A stretch of DNA of 64,000 nucleotides, taken from NCBI GenBank assembly GCA_964479005.1, contig CAYZJA010000001.1, forward strand, positions 250,225 to 314,224, written 5' to 3'. This stretch comes from an uncultured Candidatus Saccharibacteria bacterium. GTDB lineage: Bacteria; Patescibacteriota; Minisyncoccia; UBA6257. The translations under genes and the position numbers were made by a program. This document shows positions 32,324 to 63,786 of this stretch, one piece after another; within the stretch, counting starts at the first letter, position 1, and each line of letters starts with the position of its first letter. The notes under the pieces were generated by a model. That model made no database searches. It had not been told where the DNA came from and was given only the letters and a program-made list of their open reading frames with translations.

Positions 32324-33565
32324 TTACAAAATGGGATTTTTCTTTTCTAGTAAATCCTTAACTGTGATTAGCCTTATTTCTAACTCCTTCTTATTTTTAA
32401 TCCTTGCTACTTCCTCGTAAGCACCCTTAGTAAAACTAAAAGCTACAATATAACCCTTTTTATAATTTGCCCTTTTTAGGGCAGTCTCAAAATTATCTAT
32501 AACATTACGCCCTACTTTATCAGACTGCTTTACCTGTATTCCTGCTTCTTCAGTTAAAACACTCCTTGGGTAATAACCATCTAGCCCCATATCCCCAACT
32601 TTCTTTCTGCTCGCATTAGCCCTCATTTTGTCTATCACTACCCAGTTTTGAAACTCAAAAGGTTCTAATTTTTTTACTTCCTCTATTGTAGTCGGCATAC
32701 CAATCACTTCATAATCAATACCCTCTATCGTTCCTAAAGTTTTTCCTAATCTTCGTTGCATTATCTTGATTGCTGTTGGTGAAATATCTATTCCTATCCA
32801 CCTTCTACCCAATCGTTGAGCTACAGCTACTGTTGTTCCGCAACCACAAAAAGCGTCTAAAACTATATCATTTTTGTTTGAGGACGCCTCTATTATTCTT
32901 TTTAAAAGTGCTTCTGGTTTTTGGGTGGGATAACCTACTCGCTCTTCTGCCATTGGATTTATTACGGGTATATTCCATACATCTTCCACCATTTTCCCTA
33001 ACGGATTACCTTCCCACTTATAGACTTTCTTTTTTCCACCTGGTCTTCTAATAGCGACTTCGTCTTTTAGTTCTCGGCAGTATTCTTCCTTAAGACTCGG
33101 TTCATTATAATTAAAAGTCCAATTATCTCCTTTTGTATAAAAATAAATTGTATCGTGTTTTCTTGGAAACCTTGTTTTACTTTGTCCGCCGCCCTTATAA
33201 GCCCAAATAATCTCATTTCTAAAATTTTCTACCCCAAATATCTCATCTAACATAATTCTTATATGAGCGTTGGCATGCCAATCGCAATGTATGTAAAAAG
33301 AGCCTGTAGATTTCAATATCTCATACAATGCTTGAACTCTTGGTTTAAGCCAACTAATATAATTTTCTGTTCCGCCCTCCCATCTATCTTTAAAACTTCT
33401 AATCTCCGCCTCATCGCCAAATACAACTTCATACTGTTTATGAGTAAAAAATGGCGGGTCAATATAAATCAGATCTATACTCTCTTTAGGAAGTTTAGCT
33501 AACTCTTCTAAATTATCGCCGCAAATAAGTTTGTTAATCTGCCAAAGTTTATTCTGATTAGACAT
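32324..33565 (-). CDS. beta-class N6-adenine/N4-cytosine DNA methyltransferase (orphan, no adjacent restriction enzyme)
   Basis: Motif IV IYIDPPFF near N-terminus; motif I VLDAFCGCGTTVAVAQRLGRRWIGIDIS near C-terminal half. Confidence 0.85.
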   Translation of the reverse strand: MSNQNKLWQINKLICGDNLEELAKLPKESIDLIYIDPPFFTHKQYEVVFGDEAEIRSFKDRWEGGTENYISWLKPRVQALYEILKSTGSFYIHCDWHANAHIRIMLDEIFGVENFRNEIIWAYKGGGQSKTRFPRKHDTIYFYTKGDNWTFNYNEPSLKEEYCRELKDEVAIRRPGGKKKVYKWEGNPLGKMVEDVWNIPVINPMAEERVGYPTQKPEALLKRIIEASSNKNDIVLDAFCGCGTTVAVAQRLGRRWIGIDISPTAIKIMQRRLGKTLGTIEGIDYEVIGMPTTIEEVKKLEPFEFQNWVVIDKMRANASRKKVGDMGLDGYYPRSVLTEEAGIQVKQSDKVGRNVIDNFETALKRANYKKGYIVAFSFTKGAYEEVARIKNKKELEIRLITVKDLLEKKNPIL

Positions 33566-33568
33566 AGT

Positions 33569-33718
33569 AGGGATGGGTTTTAATTTTTATGCTTATATTT
33601 ACTGGCTGGAAACACAAAGCTCCCCGCCAACGACAACCTTTCGGTCGCCCTATACCTTTCGGTATAGACCCATCCCTGAGCTCTGACGAGGAGCTTAATA
33701 TCAGGGATGGGTTTTTTA
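33569..33718. other. GC-rich structured element: AGGGATGGGT (x2, direct) with intervening ACCCATCCCT, nested hairpin CTATACC-TTTC-GGTATAG, ending in stem + T6
   Basis: 12-bp perfect stem ACCCATCCCTGA/TCAGGGATGGGT (33668-33712) followed by TTTTTT; upstream copy at 33569-33578 could pair alternatively. Confidence 0.55.
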
Positions 33719-33910
33719 TGCCATATCCTATATTAGAACTTAGGCAACTTTGATTATTTAGTTTTTACAATTAAAGAATAACATAAATTGATAAAAAGGG
33801 AAGCAGAATTGTACCCTCGTTAATTATATTAATCAATCACCATTTTAGCTTTATTTAGTCATATTTTATTGCTAAAATAGGGTTGAATAAGACATAATTA
33901 TATTATTTAT

Positions 33911-34807: not shown

Positions 34808-34837
34808 TAACTCCAGAGATAATCTGGAGTTTTATGT
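34808..34837 (+). terminator. rho-independent terminator AACTCCAGA-GATAA-TCTGGAGTTTTAT
   Basis: 9-bp stem + T-run downstream of ORF 33911..34744. Confidence 0.7.
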
Positions 34838-35001
34838 TATTAAGCAAAAAAGCAATTAAGGAATTTAAAACGATCTATACCCGAAAATTTCATCAGGATA
34901 TAGATGACAAAACTGCTCAGGAAATGGCTAAAAGGCTCCTCCTGCTCTTTAAAATTGTCTATAAGCCCCCAACTAATAAACAATCAACTAAATATGACTA
35001 A
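34834..35001 (+). CDS. hypothetical 55-aa protein (MLLSKKAIKEFKTIYTRKFHQDIDDKTAQEMAKRLLLLFKIVYKPPTNKQSTKYD)
   Basis: Manual translation; below ORF-track cutoff; stop overlaps ATG of next ORF in ATGACTAA arrangement. Confidence 0.25.
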   Translation: MLLSKKAIKEFKTIYTRKFHQDIDDKTAQEMAKRLLLLFKIVYKPPTNKQSTKYD

Positions 35002-35290
35002 CGATAAATCTTATAATAATCTTAAAAAATGCCCTCGTTTTGATAGGTGCAATCAAAATTTATGTCCTCTTGATATAAGGCTTTCATTAAGAATCGGAGG
35101 ATCTGCTGAAAAATGTCGCTGGATGAGACCCCCTTCGAAGAAAACTATTCATGGTAAGGTCTTTATATCAGGAGGGCAGGTTATGCCAGATGGTTTATTG
35201 AATTTTGTGCCTGAGAGCAATTTAGAGTGGCTTAATACCCCCTCTAAAAAAAGATGGTTAGAAATTAAAAAAAATGAAACAAAATCCTAA
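34994..35290 (+). CDS. hypothetical Cys-rich small protein (CPRFDRCNQNLCPLD...)
   Basis: ORF-track entry 34904..35290 trimmed to internal Met that overlaps the preceding stop. Confidence 0.35.
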   Translation: MTNDKSYNNLKKCPRFDRCNQNLCPLDIRLSLRIGGSAEKCRWMRPPSKKTIHGKVFISGGQVMPDGLLNFVPESNLEWLNTPSKKRWLEIKKNETKS

Positions 35291-35795
35291 TACTAAATTG
35301 AAGCTTAGACCTTTACGTCTCAGGGGTGTCCCTTTTGCTTGGCAGGATACTAGATTAATCCCAAAAATCCGAGAGCATTTTCATAAAGAAAAGCTTACAA
35401 CTGCCCTTGCTTTATACTTTGTTTTAACAGAACTTGCTAGTATTGAAGGAAAAGGACAAGGAAAACATATAAATTGTTTAAAGGCATATCTAAAAACAAT
35501 AGCAGATCGTTGTGGTAAATCGGTATCAACAACCAAAAGATATCTCAAGGATTTTAAAAAATACAAAATTATATCCTGGAACAATCGTCGTAAAGGATTG
35601 ATGAATTTATCAAATGAATGGTTATTACTTCATTATTACCAGCCCACTAATGAACGTACCTCTATTCATAATGATAAACCTGTTATAAAGAATTATATAA
35701 AAAGAAGTTTTATTAATAATAAAAGGAATTATAAAAATGATAAAGATAAAGGGTTCGTTCCTATTAAGGAAATCATTGGCCGGAAGTATAAATAA
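35274..35795 (+). CDS. hypothetical basic protein with probable winged-helix DNA-binding region
   Basis: ORF only; ...TTALALYFVLTELAS...KSVSTTKRYLKDFKKYKII looks HTH-like. Confidence 0.35.
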   Translation: MKQNPNTKLKLRPLRLRGVPFAWQDTRLIPKIREHFHKEKLTTALALYFVLTELASIEGKGQGKHINCLKAYLKTIADRCGKSVSTTKRYLKDFKKYKIISWNNRRKGLMNLSNEWLLLHYYQPTNERTSIHNDKPVIKNYIKRSFINNKRNYKNDKDKGFVPIKEIIGRKYK

Positions 35796-35805
35796 GCTTG
35801 TAAAT

Positions 35806-36030
35806 TTAAGGGGGGGTATAGGGGGGTTCGCGCGCGCGAGGAATAATAAAAGATTTGCATAACAGTTGCAGTTGATTTTCATAAAGCAAAAGAGATATAA
35901 TAAAATATTGACCCAGATACCTCACAGGGAATCAATCTAGCGATAATGTCCTTAAAGGGGCGGTCTATACCAGTATTGCTGGATCCTTGTGAAACAGTGG
36001 GGCTGGGTCAATTATAGGCCGTCCCTTTAA
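35806..36030. other. GC-rich non-coding region upstream of recombinase: G7-TATA-G6, (CG)5 tract, and interleaved inverted repeats (TTAAAGGGGCGGTCTATA/TATAGGCCGTCCCTTTAA; TTGACCCAG/CTGGGTCAA)
   Basis: Read from sequence; right arm of the 18-bp imperfect dyad ends 10 nt before the recombinase ATG. Confidence 0.5.
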
Positions 36031-36040
36031 TTCTAAATTT

Positions 36041-37636
36041 ATGGAACAAATAACATCAAAAATTAAATATTTTCTTTATGCAAGAAAATCATCTGAATCT
36101 GAAGATAGACAGGTAGCTTCAATTGATTCACAAATAAAAGAATTAACTGGGGTAGCTAAGAAAGAAAAGCTAAAAATCATTGATGTTCTCACTGAATCTC
36201 AGTCAGCAAAGGCACCAGGAAGAAGCCAGTTTAATGATATGATCCAGAGAATCTCCAAAGGAGAAGCCCAGGGAATTTTATGTTGGAAGCTGGATAGATT
36301 AGCCAGAAACCCTATCGATGGCGGAAATATCATGTGGTTACTTCAGAGTAATACAATAAAACATATCAAAACATACAATAGGGATTATTATCCTACTGAT
36401 AATGTTTTGATGATGAGTGTAGAATTTGGCATGGCAAATCAGTTTATAAGAGATCTGAGTGAAAATACAAAGAGAGGGCTAAGAGCAAAGGCAGAAAAAG
36501 GATGGTATCCTACCTATGCCTCTTTAGGTTATATGCATAATCCTTTAAAAAGAAAAGGAGAAAAAGAAATTATTAAAGACCCGGAAAGGTTTGATCTTAT
36601 AAGAAAGATATTTGATTTAATGCTTACTGGTTGCTATACACCGCCTAAAATTTTAAAAATCGCTACTGAGAAATGGGGATTAAAAAATAAGCAAGGAGGA
36701 AAAGTTGCCAGAAGTACTGTTTATAGAATACTAACTGATCCATTTTATTATGGTCAATTTGAATATCCAAAAGAAAGTGGAAATTGGTATAAGGGCAAAC
36801 ATAAACTTATGATAACTCTAGAAGAATATGACAAAATTCAAATTTTACTTGGGAGAAAAGGTAAACCTCGATCTAAAACGCATACTTTCGCTTTTACCGG
36901 AATGATTAGATGTAGCGAATGCGAAGCAATGATTACAGCCGAAGAAAAAATTAAAATACAAAAAAACGGAAATATTCATAAATATATTTATTATCATTGC
37001 ACCAAGAAAAAAGATTCTCATTGCTCCCAAAAATCTATAGAACAAAAAGAATTAGAAAAACAAATCCTGGATATTTTGGGTGGAATTGAAATTCCTCCAG
37101 AATTTCATCAATGGGCAATGAAGTGGATACAAATTGAAAATAAAAAAGAAAGTAAAGCAAGGAACCAAATTATAGTAAACCATCAAGAAAGCTATAAAAA
37201 ATGTTTAAAGAGAATTGATAATCTTATTGATATGAGATCTGCTGAGGATATAACGAAAAAAGAATTTCTGAGAAAAAAATCGGAGTTAAGTCAGGAAAAG
37301 ATTCGATTAGAAGAATTACTCGCGGATACAGGAAACAGAATTAATAAACAATTAGAGAAAGCTGAGGAAGCATTTTTATTTGCTGAAAAAGCTAAAGAAA
37401 GATTTGAAAATGGAGACATCAAAGACAAAAAAGAAATTCTAACAGCCCTAGGTTCGAACCTCATTTTAAAAGATAAAAAGCTAAGTATAACAATACAAAA
37501 ACCACTTTTCCTTATTGAAAAAGTGGCCAAACAGGTTAAAGCAATTAATCAAAGGTTAGAACCTCTGAAAAACCGCATAACAAATAACGAATTGGAGGAA
37601 ATCTATCTTCAAAATCCTACGTTGCTCCGCGGGTAG
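36041..37636 (+). CDS. large serine recombinase (integrase-type)
   Basis: Resolvase catalytic domain with active-site Ser (YARKSSESEDRQVASIDSQ), recombinase domain, zinc ribbon (CSEC...YYHCTKK), C-terminal coiled coil; 3' end overlaps tRNA-Asn. Confidence 0.9.
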   Translation: MEQITSKIKYFLYARKSSESEDRQVASIDSQIKELTGVAKKEKLKIIDVLTESQSAKAPGRSQFNDMIQRISKGEAQGILCWKLDRLARNPIDGGNIMWLLQSNTIKHIKTYNRDYYPTDNVLMMSVEFGMANQFIRDLSENTKRGLRAKAEKGWYPTYASLGYMHNPLKRKGEKEIIKDPERFDLIRKIFDLMLTGCYTPPKILKIATEKWGLKNKQGGKVARSTVYRILTDPFYYGQFEYPKESGNWYKGKHKLMITLEEYDKIQILLGRKGKPRSKTHTFAFTGMIRCSECEAMITAEEKIKIQKNGNIHKYIYYHCTKKKDSHCSQKSIEQKELEKQILDILGGIEIPPEFHQWAMKWIQIENKKESKARNQIIVNHQESYKKCLKRIDNLIDMRSAEDITKKEFLRKKSELSQEKIRLEELLADTGNRINKQLEKAEEAFLFAEKAKERFENGDIKDKKEILTALGSNLILKDKKLSITIQKPLFLIEKVAKQVKAINQRLEPLKNRITNNELEEIYLQNPTLLRG

Positions 37637-37920
37637 GATTCGAACCTACAACCTACTGGTTACACCTAATCTCTAAGTTTCCTTAAAGGGTGGACTATAT
37701 CTTCACCTTGTCTGTTTAAAACAGATTTAGGTGTCTCGGTATCTAGTCTCTACGGCGCCCCCGTGTTATAACACAAGGTTCCCACGGTATTAGCATAGTT
37801 TGATATTATCAAACTTTAGCCTTCACCGTTATCCCGAGATGTTCATTCCAAGGTTTCCCCTGAAAGCTGCGAAATAGGAATCATCCACAGCCAGACGCTC
37901 TACCATTGAGCTACCGCGGA
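37625..37920 (-). tRNA. tRNA-Asn (anticodon GUU) interrupted by a ~224-nt group I-like intron in the anticodon loop; CCA not encoded
   Basis: 5' exon TCCGCGGTAGCTCAATGGTAGAGCGTCTGGCTGT (37887-37920) + 3' exon TAACCAGTAGGTTGTAGGTTCGAATCCTACCCGCGGAG (37625-37662) give cloverleaf with U1-A72, G73, loop CUGUUAA, T-loop GGTTCGAATCC. Confidence 0.7.
37663..37886 (-). other. group I (IC3-like) intron within tRNA-Asn
   Basis: Begins after exon U and ends with G; internal guide GCAGCU 17 nt in can pair exon GGCUGU (U.G at splice site); contains GUAGAGACUAGA...CACCUAA matching the J8/7-P7-P9.0 segment of Azoarcus/cyanobacterial tRNA group I introns; GGGGAAACC near 5' end. Confidence 0.6.
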
Positions 37921-42968: not shown

Positions 42969-43394
42969 TTAAATTAACTTTTTAGCTTTTAATACTTGGT
43001 AATATCTATCTGCCAAAGAATCGCGTAATTTATCAATTAAAAAAGCATTTCCGCTTTTTAAGGCAGTGCTAACAGCTTTACCAATACTTTCTTCTACTGC
43101 TATGCCTATAAGCTCAGAAAGCTTAATATTGGCTTCTTCTATAACCGAATCAGAAGATTCATCAGATTCATCAGTCTGAGAAACAATTTTAGAAGGAAAA
43201 GGTACCTTCATTTCTGTATCAGGCTTTAAAACATCCATACCAGGAGGCATTTCTTTTAAAGAATCTTCCATTATTTCTTCAATGGTTTCAGCAACTAATT
43301 CTTTTTCCTCGGGAATAGGCAACTCTTGCCGAGTTAATTGCTCTTTTTTAACTTGTATTCGCTTTTTAATTAAATCTATTTCTGTTTTTTCCAT
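42969..43394 (-). CDS. hypothetical acidic protein
   Basis: ORF only, translationally adjacent to the ATPase. Confidence 0.35.
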   Translation of the reverse strand: MEKTEIDLIKKRIQVKKEQLTRQELPIPEEKELVAETIEEIMEDSLKEMPPGMDVLKPDTEMKVPFPSKIVSQTDESDESSDSVIEEANIKLSELIGIAVEESIGKAVSTALKSGNAFLIDKLRDSLADRYYQVLKAKKLI

Positions 43395-60820: not shown

Positions 60821-62275
60821 TTAAAAAATTAAAGTTTCTCCTTTCTCTACAATTTTCACCTTTTTATGTATTTTTTTAAATTCTTCTGGGAATTCAACAT
60901 GAATAGGAATTACTATTTCTGCTTGAATTTCTTTTATAAATTCAGCTAATTCTTTCCCGCTAATATGGCCTGAAATATGAGCTCTTTCAAAAACTTTTTT
61001 TATTATACCATTTTCATCTTCTTCATTTTTCAATCCTTGCATATTAAAATGCTTAATCCAATTAACAAATCTTTCTTCTGAAATCTCCATTTCCTCATTA
61101 TGAGGCTCTGTAATAGCCCTTAAATAATAGCTTTCTTTGCCTGGTTTAATATCAATTAATTCCTGGACCTGATAAAAATTTAAAACAAGCATAAACTTTT
61201 TTTTATTCTTCTTTATGTCCTCGCTATTGCAAGTTTTATAATTCTTTAACAAATCTCTTTCCCATTTCTTAAAAGTGATTTTTCTTTTAGCATAAAGCAT
61301 AACATTCTGTAAATCTGCTTTTTTTATACCCTTTTCTCTTAATACTCCTTCTTTTTCTAACACAGCAAGGTAATTAAAGTAATTATAAGGAAGAGCGATT
61401 ATACGTTTAGTTTTTTTTGCTATTTTTAATAAAGTTTTAAAACGAATAACGTCTCCTATTGAATAATCAACGACTACCAATCCTTTTATTTTCTTAATAT
61501 TTTCCAATGCCTTTTTATACACTTCTTTTTCCCTTAAGATTGATTGTTCTTTAATTCTTGTACCTTCACAGATAAACGCTTTTATTTTACATTTTTTAAG
61601 AAAAGAATAAATCTTTTTCTTCTCATTTTGTTTAATCTCTGATAAACGAAAATCACCTGAATATAAAATATTACCTTTGGAAGTTTTTATTAGAAACATA
61701 CAAGCTCCTGGCACTGAATGGTCAATTTCTATAGGAATAATTTCCAGATTTTTAATAAAAAATGATTCTTGATTAATAATAATTTTAAACTTTCTTCTTC
61801 TTTTTTTTCTTTTTCTTGGGTTTTCTACATCGCGTAAAGATAATTCTAATATCTCATTTTCCAAGCTTTTGGGACGGGAAATATAAAATGCCTTTAAAAC
61901 AGCCATTGTATCTTTACTAGTATAAACAGGAATTTGAGGATCTAAAAAAGAAATATATCCAGCATGGTCTAAATGCCCATGCGATAAAAGAACTCCATCA
62001 ACTTTTGGCTTTGAATAATAAATTTGATTTTCTCCCTCTTTCTTTAAAATTCTGATTAAATCCTCACGATAAATGCCTTGTTTCCTAGGCAATAGACCTA
62101 ATTCCAAATAATCTTTTAAACCATGAACAACGCGGGGATTTAAAAATTCCTCAAAGTATTTTGAAGATTCATGATAGCTTTTCCCAAAATCTAAAAAAAT
62201 AGCGGTATTTTTGTCTTGTAAAAGAACTTTGCTACCGCCAATTTCTCTTATCCCGCCATAAAAGGTTAACTTCAT
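60821..62275 (-). CDS. beta-CASP/MBL-fold ribonuclease (RNase J-like)
   Basis: LTFYGGIREIGGSKVLL...FLDFG, HxHxDH (LSHGHLDHAG), beta-CASP region, C-terminal His. Confidence 0.6.
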   Translation of the reverse strand: MKLTFYGGIREIGGSKVLLQDKNTAIFLDFGKSYHESSKYFEEFLNPRVVHGLKDYLELGLLPRKQGIYREDLIRILKKEGENQIYYSKPKVDGVLLSHGHLDHAGYISFLDPQIPVYTSKDTMAVLKAFYISRPKSLENEILELSLRDVENPRKRKKRRRKFKIIINQESFFIKNLEIIPIEIDHSVPGACMFLIKTSKGNILYSGDFRLSEIKQNEKKKIYSFLKKCKIKAFICEGTRIKEQSILREKEVYKKALENIKKIKGLVVVDYSIGDVIRFKTLLKIAKKTKRIIALPYNYFNYLAVLEKEGVLREKGIKKADLQNVMLYAKRKITFKKWERDLLKNYKTCNSEDIKKNKKKFMLVLNFYQVQELIDIKPGKESYYLRAITEPHNEEMEISEERFVNWIKHFNMQGLKNEEDENGIIKKVFERAHISGHISGKELAEFIKEIQAEIVIPIHVEFPEEFKKIHKKVKIVEKGETLIF

Positions 62276-63786
62276 ATCTTAATGCTTAAATTAAATGTTA
62301 CTCCTTGTGGTGTATCTATTAACGCGGAAAGAGGCAAAGAAATATCTGTAAAAAGTTGAGATTTATCCAGCACATTTTTAAAATCTACTATGAGAGCTTT
62401 CTTACTAGCCCCCCCCTGAATAGTAATATTGTTTGCCGGAGCTGCGCTTACTAAAATTCTTTTGATATTAACTGATAAAAGACCAGCTTCTTTAAAAATA
62501 ACCTCTAATTTTTCTTTCCAATCCACTTCATATTTTTGAATTTGAATAAATTTGGTAATAAGATTGTTAAATTCATTTGCCCCTTGAACCAAATTTGATT
62601 CTTTTCCTCTGATTTTTGGATCCAAAGGACTAGCTGTGGATTGATAATATTGCTCTTGGATATCTCGAAAAAAAGTATTGTTTAATAACCCAAGTAAAAA
62701 AACCATAACCAATCCAACAGTTATTATAATTTTACTCCATAAAGAAATAATACTTAAAAGATGGTTTTGTTGATATTCTCTTTCTGTACCAACTGGAGCT
62801 AAACTTACTATAGTATCCTCATTACGGGAAATAAGCCCCCTAAGGGCAGCCCCTATTACTCCAAACCAATCCCGGCTTGCCTTGGAAAGATATGAAGGTA
62901 ATTTAATCTGTTTTGAATTAAGTTGATACTGAACCTGAATCCATTTAATTAAAACATTCACCAACTGAGTATTAAAACCAAGGAAAACAAATTGTTGAAT
63001 TATCTTCTTCCTTTTAAGAGAATAGAAATTCAATAGCATTGGTATTTCAACACCCATATGTTTTTTCAATAAATCTGTAGTAATTTTAGAAGGAATATCT
63101 TTTCCAAAAATCTCATGCCAAGAATCAAAATCAAAAAAGATTAATTTCTTGCCTTCAGCAATAATAAACTCTATTCCTTCTCTCCTTAAATCTATTATTA
63201 ATGTTGGCTTTTCTTTTTCTACAAATTCATAATTAAATCGCGCCAATGATAAAGCTAATGGTTCTATTGCCACTATATTAAATCCAACTTCCTTTAAAAT
63301 TTCTAAATATGGATCAATCTGTTTTTTAATGCCCAACGCAATAAAGATCTCTTTTTCTCCTTCTTTGCCTGATACACCCCAATCTTCCCAATCAAAATAT
63401 GACTCTTCCATTGGTAAAGGCGCTATCATTTGAGTATTAAAAACAATCGCCTCATAAAAACGATCCCTATCTAACTCGGGTAAACTAAGAATATTTGTAA
63501 AAAAATTAACTGAAGGAAGAGATAAAACAATCCAAACATTTTTTTCTTTTGGCCAAAGTTTGTTTTTTAGAGAATTAAAAAATGATTTTAATTGTTCTGG
63601 TTTTTTTAAAATCCCCTCTTCTATAATGCCTTTTGGTAAAGCGTATTTTCCTGCTTTTGTAATTCTATTAATTTTTTTATCAAAACAAAAAACCCGCACC
63701 ATTCTATCTTCTATACAAATAGCGCTAATAGTAAATTCAGGAACCAACAACTTCTGCCAATCTTTTAGATTAAACTTCGTCCTCAT
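62272..63786 (-). CDS. type IV pilus assembly PilM-like (actin-fold) protein fused to a TM + PilN-like C-terminal region
   Basis: N-terminal region follows PilM pattern (…LSLPSVNFFTNILSLPELDRDRFYEAIVFNTQMIAPLPMEESYFDWEDW), central TM helix, C-terminal periplasmic part. Confidence 0.45.
   Translation of the reverse strand: MRTKFNLKDWQKLLVPEFTISAICIEDRMVRVFCFDKKINRITKAGKYALPKGIIEEGILKKPEQLKSFFNSLKNKLWPKEKNVWIVLSLPSVNFFTNILSLPELDRDRFYEAIVFNTQMIAPLPMEESYFDWEDWGVSGKEGEKEIFIALGIKKQIDPYLEILKEVGFNIVAIEPLALSLARFNYEFVEKEKPTLIIDLRREGIEFIIAEGKKLIFFDFDSWHEIFGKDIPSKITTDLLKKHMGVEIPMLLNFYSLKRKKIIQQFVFLGFNTQLVNVLIKWIQVQYQLNSKQIKLPSYLSKASRDWFGVIGAALRGLISRNEDTIVSLAPVGTEREYQQNHLLSIISLWSKIIITVGLVMVFLLGLLNNTFFRDIQEQYYQSTASPLDPKIRGKESNLVQGANEFNNLITKFIQIQKYEVDWKEKLEVIFKEAGLLSVNIKRILVSAAPANNITIQGGASKKALIVDFKNVLDKSQLFTDISLPLSALIDTPQGVTFNLSIKI

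Follow-up and report, generated by a model that had tools for sequence, protein, structure and literature searches.

A well-supported family of predicted pseudoknotted leader RNAs associated with large serine recombinase genes of mobile elements in the candidate phyla radiation

Results

A structured leader RNA upstream of the recombinase gene

A 64-kb stretch of DNA from an uncultured Candidatus Saccharibacteria bacterium (contig CAYZJA010000001.1; hereafter the window, to which all positions refer) contains int, a gene for a large serine recombinase (LSR). int (36041–37636, + strand) encodes 531 amino acids (aa) with Pfam Resolvase, Recombinase and Zn_ribbon_recom matches and a PHROG 'integrase' match (2e-67). 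The int mRNA is predicted to begin with a structured 5′ leader. Comparative sequence analysis gives good support to this leader as a member of a new, uncatalogued family of pseudoknotted RNA that is tied to LSR integration modules of mobile elements in the candidate phyla radiation (CPR).

The leader lies in the intergenic space (35796–36040) between int and a 173-aa open reading frame (ORF, 35274–35795) with weak helix-turn-helix and replication-initiator-like matches. An original prediction, made from the sequence alone, noted G-tracts, a CG run and two interleaved inverted repeats in this space. It proposed an attachment (att) or regulatory site of the recombinase, an RNA structure controlling int, or a slipped-strand or Z-DNA hotspot. 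This interpretation is partly supported. The features are present, but the 230-nt region is not a single unit. It consists of two objects, a G/CG block (35810–35838) and a promoter with the leader (35872–36030). GC content is 41.7% over 35806–36040 and 46.8% over the leader itself (35907–36030), compared with 31.5% in the window.

Both inverted repeats lie at the positions predicted for them. The longer one joins TTAAAGGGGCGGTCTATA (35952–35969) to TATAGGCCGTCCCTTTAA (36013–36030) over 18 nt, and its right arm ends 10 nt before the int ATG at 36041, as predicted. 16/18 positions are Watson-Crick pairs and the remaining two are G:T, so both apparent mismatches become G-U pairs if the + strand is read as RNA. 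The shorter one, ATTGACCCAG (35907–35916) with CTGGGTCAAT (36003–36012), pairs at 10/10 positions, one base more than predicted. The 18-mer is found with three or fewer mismatches only at these two sites in the window (0.04 expected). Because the repeats are interleaved, they specify a hairpin whose apical loop would pair with its own 3′ tail. The leader stretch has an RNA folding z-score of −3.57, and 0/200 shuffled sequences were equally stable.

A sigma-70-type promoter lies immediately upstream on the + strand (35872–35901). TTGATT (35872–35877) and TATAAT (35896–35901) are separated by an 18-nt spacer and match the consensus at 10/12 positions. The predicted transcription start, near 35907, is the first base of outer stem P1, which is the shorter repeat. 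Transcription from this point would yield an RNA whose first 124 nt (35907–36030, + strand) fold as a three-segment hairpin, P1-P2-P3. This structured leader is delimited by a covariance-model match, folding energy and covariation. In the constrained fold, P2 pairs 35920–35930 with 35984–35992 and 35999–36000, and P3 pairs 35936–35945 and 35947–35948 with 35971–35972 and 35974–35983. The left arm of the longer repeat occupies the apical loop of P3 and forms the pseudoknot 5′ arm. The pseudoknot 3′ arm abuts the 3′ strand of P1 and is followed by 10 A/U-rich nt and the ATG. The constrained minimum free energy is −38.4 kcal/mol for the P1-P2-P3 hairpin and −28.6 kcal/mol for the loop-tail duplex. 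The 18-nt loop would pair with the tail at 36013–36030, and P1 and the loop-tail helix could then stack into a quasi-continuous helix that ends 10 nt before the AUG.

Conservation and covariation of the leader

LSR homologs number more than 5,900, mostly in metagenome-assembled genomes of Patescibacteria/CPR, and thousands are at 45–90% identity. A total of 163 LSR loci were collected, and the sequence upstream of each start codon was inspected. The same leader architecture, with differing sequences, is present in about 35 loci. Covariance model R1 was built from ten loci at 52–66% LSR identity, leaving out the window and its close relatives. It matched the window at 35905–36034 with 53.8 bits (E ~1e-10 to 2e-11). 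With all filters off, R1 found no other real match in the 64-kb window.

Plain MAFFT alignments resolved the inner helices too poorly. A model-based alignment of 22 sequences (A5) was used instead, and the pseudoknot was added by hand. Standard pairs occupy 92.6% of the cells in A5, compared with 73.1% after shuffling. Double-sided changes occur at 37/44 pairs. The covariation score is 0.595 versus 0.236 for shuffled alignments, and none of 500 shuffles reached it. When partners were slid by 1–3 columns, pairing fell to 35–54%. The pseudoknot helix is 97% paired, with 8 covarying pairs. Since the model treats the pseudoknot as unpaired sequence, its pairing and covariation are not a fitting artefact. 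RNAalifold also yields the pseudoknot helix on the plain MAFFT alignment. Judged by this strong covariation in aligned sequences, both inverted repeats are helices of a conserved RNA leader.

The pattern of substitution indicates which strand is folded. Wobble cells of the G-U or U-G type number 83, compared with 20 of the A-C or C-A type, and by this excess it is the + strand sense that folds. A wobble is conserved at one pseudoknot position (GU in 18 sequences, GC in 3, AU in 1). The pseudoknot core, AAAGGGGC / GYCCCUUU, hardly varies, and covariation with the 3′ arm is found in the distal part. Changes that preserve pairing are also seen at short range. In close relatives with 89–90% identical LSRs, P1 GACCC/GGGTC is replaced by GATCC/GGATC (C-G to U-A), and a pseudoknot G-U pair by A-U. 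The U-rich internal loop of most family members is absent from the window copy.

Two outcomes that the original prediction had counted against itself were not observed. The symmetry is kept in homologous elements. The region does not read as coding sequence in relatives either, as no ORF is conserved and substitutions are compensatory for pairing. A leader peptide was considered and rejected. The window lineage has a 23-codon ORF (35946–36017), and locus L009 has a same-frame ORF that spans the loop; L130, L040, L005 and L012 have no ATG there. An antisense promoter-like site on the minus strand (36059–36030) is not conserved, by reading of the sequences of other copies. A riboswitch was rejected as well: conservation sits in the helices, and the downstream genes are recombinases, a 55-aa partner gene and a few membrane proteins.

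An Rfam 15 cmscan of 35000–37000 on both strands (E≤10) returned eight sub-threshold chance matches, none of which covers the leader. One of them, a 24-nt CRISPR-repeat match at 36024–36047, touches the last bases of the leader. At gathering scores, Rfam identified only LOOT RNA and two tRNAs in the whole window. No description of this leader RNA was found in the literature. The kind of element is already known, namely a cis-acting structured leader of a mobile-element gene; the family and its long loop-tail pseudoknot are uncatalogued.

Promoter and start codon context

The promoter keeps its position relative to the fold. Among 34 distinct copies, a TATAAT-like −10 box (mean 5.3/6 matches) lies 5–6 nt (range 3–10) before the first base of P1, and a −35 box of the form TTGnnn (mean 4.1/6) lies 16–19 nt upstream of the −10 box. 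The gap between P1 and the 3′ arm is 0–2 nt in 28/30 copies examined. Spacing to the start codon is looser, with 1–42 A/U-rich nt between the loop-tail helix and the ATG and no Shine-Dalgarno (SD) motif. The window copy shows both hallmarks of the leader family, with its −10 box at the usual distance of 5–6 nt from P1 and int on the same strand downstream.

The lack of an SD motif is not peculiar to int. An SD-like motif precedes only 8/63 window ORFs of at least 100 aa. Many ORF starts lie 6–8 nt after a TATAAT-like box (for example 42969–43394 and 62272–63786, with minus-strand starts at 43394 and 63786), and with so few bases after the box these ORFs look leaderless. Sequence context thus suggests that leaderless mRNAs are widespread in this organism. 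Other LSR loci also have leaderless-type promoters. The structured 124-nt, 47%-GC leader stands out against this SD-poor, leaderless-looking background.

Genes associated with the leader

About 33/144 loci of this LSR family have the leader directly before the LSR ATG. About 35 copies precede LSRs 30–100% identical to that of the window, the 55-aa partner gene, or operons containing them. In L071, L101 and L043 the leader heads an operon with the LSR as its last gene. In L005, L076, L106 and L067 a second leader copy is found 2.3–3.6 kb upstream on the opposite strand, before a membrane-protein gene or another small ORF. The leader has the orientation of its downstream gene in 38/38 copies, including the divergent second copies.

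Leader copies also occur in filamentous phage-like sequences. An exact-pattern scan of IMG/VR with the pseudoknot DNA pattern identified five related contigs (L165–L169, for example L169 5045–5746 and 6455–7228) with leader copies of 60–71 bits. All encode a Zot ATPase and a G2P-type Rep, which makes them inovirus-like, and the leader lies between Rep and the integration genes. It precedes a homolog of the 55-aa ORF (L166–L168) or LSRs 30–38% identical to that of the window. In one of the contigs a C5 methylase and a reverse transcriptase are encoded as well. Inoviruses with CPR hosts have been described, as have serine recombinase genes of inoviruses (PMC6813254). Searches of GenBank phages with the 5.4-kb neighborhood (megablast) or the 245-nt region (blastn) gave no match. 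A search of IMG/VR with the single LSR protein gave no match, and an alignment query gave one distant locus.

The 55-aa ORF (o55, 34834–35001, + strand) is a conserved partner of the LSR. In 108/144 loci homologs of it are found upstream of the LSR and in the same orientation. They are equally frequent with the leader (26/33) and without it (82/111), and none of the upstream gene families tested correlated with leader presence. The protein has no Pfam or PHROG match. AlphaFold2 models it as a two-helix hairpin (predicted local distance difference test score 82.6), and Foldseek found no match to the model in the PDB below E 0.8. It is a candidate trans-acting, directionality or regulatory factor. 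A Rop-like RNA-binding role was considered and found no support.

A LOOT RNA (Rfam RF03000; 33632–33746, minus strand; 72.1 bits versus a gathering score of 46.4) sits 2.2 kb upstream of the leader. It marks the left edge of a plus-strand block of about 4 kb that ends with the recombinase gene. An 18-nt piece of it (33698–33715) is repeated at 33564–33581 and there overlaps the start of a methylase gene. The listed ORF 33589–33753 is probably not a gene. The methylase (32324–33565, minus strand) is an N6/N4 DNA methylase fused to an Mrr-type restriction endonuclease domain and lies directly left of LOOT and the recombinase block.

The attachment region at the 3′ end of int

The right junction of the element lies at the other end of int. 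A tRNA-Asn(GUU) gene (37624–37920, minus strand) is split by a group I intron, and its 3′ end overlaps the int stop codon. The intron (37663–37886, 224 nt; RF00028, 64.4 bits) interrupts the anticodon after U35, which is why ARAGORN and Rfam at gathering score missed this tRNA. In silico removal of the intron restores a perfect 73-nt tRNA-Asn(GUU), with the int stop codon 13 nt inside its 3′ end. The tRNA gene of close relative L081 has no intron.

A convergent tRNA gene (Asn, Ser, Gln, Lys or Trp) overlaps the last LSR codons in at least 15 other leader-bearing loci (L005, L008, L009, L012, L014, L017, L027, L033, L040, L045, L050, L068, L081, L083 and L106). This overlap (37624–37636 in the window) argues that the LSR elements sit at tRNA 3′ ends and that the Int C-terminus is encoded across the junction. 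Host DNA is thus joined at the 3′ end of int and not in the region upstream of the gene. The left end of the element was looked for and not found, as neither a repeat of the tRNA 3′ segment or of the dyad nor convincing bounding direct repeats turned up in the window. An 11-nt identity, TCCTTAAAGGG, between 35948–35958 in and next to the pseudoknot 5′ arm and a site near 37680 in the intron region occurs at this locus only and is probably chance.

The G/CG block

The G-tracts and the CG run are present as originally noted, with G7 (35810–35816), TATA, G6 (35821–35826), TT and a self-complementary (CG)5 (35829–35838). The window has three runs of six or more G, two of which are in the G7-TATA-G6 stretch (35810–35826, + strand), and a single (CG)n run with n of at least 3, which is this one. 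The block begins 15 nt after the stop codon of the 173-aa ORF, outside the conserved RNA, and lies 34–62 nt before the −35 box, upstream of the promoter. The G7-TATA-G6 stretch by itself is 46 nt away from that box.

G7 and G6 are identical in 7/7 copies from three lineages, that of the window and two at 89–90% LSR identity, in which the flanks have diverged. Such invariance points to constraint or function rather than free slippage. The CG run has 5 units in three copies of the window lineage and 6 in four copies of the two related lineages (L081–L084), a mild repeat polymorphism of one unit. Hence a slipped-strand or Z-DNA hotspot is a weak explanation for these tracts. No G-tract motif was found at a comparable position in distant loci. 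The G block resembles the pseudoknot 5′ arm at 13/16 positions, and a weak alternative duplex with the 3′ arm has −16.2 kcal/mol versus −28.6 kcal/mol for the loop-tail duplex. By its sequence and distribution the G/CG block appears to be a separate, lineage-specific element under length constraint. The simplest guess is a role at the int promoter, as operator or as upstream promoter element.

Discussion

A leader that may act in cis to gate integrase expression

The RNA structure controlling int that was originally proposed is borne out in essence, in that the structure is conserved and the promoter lies at a fixed distance from it; the control itself we infer. On balance, and with modest confidence, we favor 35872–36040 as the promoter and 5′ leader of the recombinase mRNA, acting in cis as a gate on expression of the integration module through occlusion of the start region, attenuation, or both. 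Its most likely role would be to keep integrase expression low or conditional, the regulation, its level and its switch all being deduced from structure and position.

Two routes can be envisioned. In the first, a helix of −28.6 kcal/mol that buries 15–18 nt upstream of the start should block access of the 30S subunit. Because the host is SD-poor, with many starts that look leaderless or lie in unstructured A/U-rich sequence, and initiation would need an open start region, a stable helix near the AUG should hinder int translation. In about half of the copies the loop-tail helix ends 1–10 nt before the AUG. In the second route, the loop-tail helix could stop transcription before the AUG is reached. 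Its anatomy is terminator-like, with an A-tract, a GC-rich base (GGGGC/GYCCC) and a U-rich tail. In the window the base GGGGC/GUCCC is followed by UUUAAUUCU, and in many relatives by UUUUUGU; the helix is a pseudoknot and not a hairpin. P3 and the full loop-tail helix would alternate and thereby provide a switch. Winding 15–18 bp around a tail held by polymerase would be hard for a P3-closed loop of about 22 nt, and for this reason the two probably exclude each other.

Several observations weigh against this proposal. The alternation of P3 and pseudoknot, though probable, is argued from general RNA geometry rather than from computation. With 1–42 nt between helix and ATG, direct occlusion of the start site cannot hold for every copy. 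A terminator scan found 0 terminators at the leader; the arms are separated by a 43-nt 'loop', and the U-run in the window is short, UUU followed by AAUUCU. Some copies precede genes other than integration genes, namely small membrane proteins (L005, L076, L071) and YceG (L101, L043), and some lie 48–333 nt from the next ORF. Finally, the loci were gathered around LSR genes, a sampling bias that affects how strong the LSR association looks.

In line with the second route, a second type of leader is found about 65 nt upstream of the LSR ATG in L001, L006, L007, L011, L088–L091 and L095. It is compact and looks unrelated. A hairpin with a 20-nt loop pairs through that loop with the sequence right after the hairpin, which is the same loop-tail topology. 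The second pairing forms a hairpin that looks like a canonical terminator, with a GC-rich stem and a U-run, and ends 4 nt before the ATG. Compensatory and wobble changes between loci are visible by inspection. This leader is likely a terminator/antiterminator pair, to judge from the two hairpins.

Alternative explanations

The copies that precede other genes or lie far from the next ORF make a free-standing small RNA possible. Such an RNA, encoded by the element and ending at the U-rich tail, might act in trans in immunity or copy control like P4 CI or P1 c4 and pair with transcripts of a second copy. Its loop or tail would pair with the matching sequence of an incoming or resident copy, and the covarying distal part of the helix would set specificity. 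The leader has its own promoter, and many copies have a GC-rich helix followed by a U-run (CCCTTTTTGTTTT). In L062 the next ORF is 333 nt away, and in L101 it is 85 nt away with a TTGACT promoter box between. Between elements, variation and covariation are found in the distal half of the helix, and the proximal AAAGGGGC is fixed. Nevertheless about half of the copies have an ATG within 10 nt, which makes the RNA an mRNA leader too, whatever else it may be. It has no Rfam match to c4/CI or to any small RNA family, and a second target site was not found in the window. We regard a trans-acting RNA as unlikely, though as the likeliest of the alternatives.

A related but more speculative thought, which we hold to be rather improbable, is that the leader is an RNA-level device for specificity or immunity. 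Resident and incoming elements, CPR inoviruses included, might sense each other's transcripts through it, or the 55-aa protein or the recombinase might read the RNA, with the pseudoknot doubling as an unconventional terminator. If this were true, integration or excision would be switched by an RNA pseudoknot.

The inovirus-like contigs raise the question of whether the conserved structure works as single-stranded DNA (ssDNA) of a filamentous phage, where it might serve as minus-strand origin or packaging signal, or fold into an ssDNA attachment site like the one that CTX phage uses with XerCD. In their contigs, which encode Zot and a G2P-type rolling-circle Rep, the five copies are on the coding strand, which has the packaged sense, with Rep on one side and the integration genes on the other. 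G:T wobbles are tolerated in ssDNA too, so the 83:20 asymmetry does not separate it from RNA. The authors of a survey of 224 motifs raise the same caveat (PMC5737381). The window element and most loci, however, yielded no homolog of Zot or Rep when ±4 kb was searched at BLAST sensitivity. A conserved TATAAT outside the fold, at a fixed 5–6 nt, fits a duplex promoter and the 5′ end of a transcript. A packaged single strand would not explain the second copies of L005, L076, L106 and L067, which lie on the opposite strand and each face their own downstream gene. Serine recombinases, moreover, act on duplex sites. An ssDNA structure is therefore a doubtful explanation.

By analogy with the IS110 bridge RNA, the RNA could be a functional partner that guides the recombinase, serves as its scaffold or sets its directionality, but this is very unlikely. 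The leader does co-occur with LSRs across 30–100% identity, and it is encoded directly 5′ of the recombinase like bridge RNAs (context as summarized in a preprint). The longest matches between leader and att/tRNA sequence are no better at the own locus (mean 7.75 nt) than at other loci (mean 7.63 nt). The tRNA target (Asn, Ser, Gln, Lys or Trp) is not reflected in the sequences of pseudoknot and loop. Other leaders or none are found in about three quarters of the loci of the LSR family, so the enzyme does not need this one. Large serine recombinases recognize att sites by protein alone.

Least probable of all, the repeats would be protein-binding sites in duplex DNA, an attP or an operator for the recombinase or a repressor, with a dimer on both arms; a position next to int is typical for phage attP and autoregulatory operators, and the invariant core AAAGGGGC / GYCCCTTT could be a recognition sequence, but four separate helices covary rather than one dyad, and the wobbles are asymmetric (83:20), with a conserved G:T that would amount to a conserved asymmetry in a dyad. 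The att site that had been suggested for the dyad fares no better. An LSR att site is an imperfect inverted repeat of about 40–50 bp directly flanking a central crossover dinucleotide. Here the arms are 43 nt apart (24–47 nt, with variable spacing, in relatives), are interleaved with a second repeat, and do not flank a central dinucleotide. A symmetry that is kept through G-U wobbles on one strand only does not support an att site. The proposed search for a second partial copy of the dyad as an attL/attR partner was run in the 64-kb window and found none with three or fewer mismatches, and the host junction is at the tRNA end of int.

Significance and comparison with known systems

LSRs are workhorses of genome engineering, and little is known about control of their natural expression. 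The leader travels with integration modules over LSRs that are only 30% identical, in hosts that are largely SD-free, and through it integrase control in CPR elements and inoviruses becomes accessible to experiment. The set of known bacterial structured RNAs grows by a well-supported new family. A 15–18-bp loop-tail helix that abuts a 5′-terminal stem is an unusual architecture and could reveal attenuation based on a pseudoknot.

The pseudoknots of IncI-alpha/IncB plasmid rep mRNA (repZ/repA) have helices of 4–8 bp, activate translation, depend on a leader peptide, and are blocked by antisense RNA. As in the leader, the loop of an upstream hairpin pairs with sequence immediately 5′ of the start region of a mobile-element gene, and in repZ/repA this loop-tail helix decides translation. 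Unlike those systems, the leader has a helix of 15–18 bp, no conserved leader ORF or antisense promoter was found in it, and there is no sequence relation. With intrinsic terminators and attenuators it shares an A-tract and a GC-rich helix base next to a U-rich tail, placed between promoter and start codon. It differs from standard terminators in that the helix strands are 24–47 nt apart and the intervening nucleotides are paired elsewhere, which produces a pseudoknot.

The immunity RNAs P4 CI and P1-P7 c4 (Rfam C4) are mobile-element RNAs encoded in a leader, with a loop complementary to sequence further along the same leader. The leader described here follows this plan, a loop complementary to a later part of itself, but it has no Rfam match at E≤10 and a different fold, and flanking targets on both sides were not found. 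The IS110 bridge RNA is likewise a structured non-coding RNA 5′ of a mobile-element recombinase gene. That recombinase is a DEDD and not a serine enzyme, however, and for the leader no complementarity to target or donor was found and most relatives of the recombinase lack the RNA. LOOT (RF03000) resembles the leader in being a structured RNA of bacteria for which comparative analysis of uncultured organisms is so far the only source, but the four-hairpin architecture of LOOT is not that of the leader.

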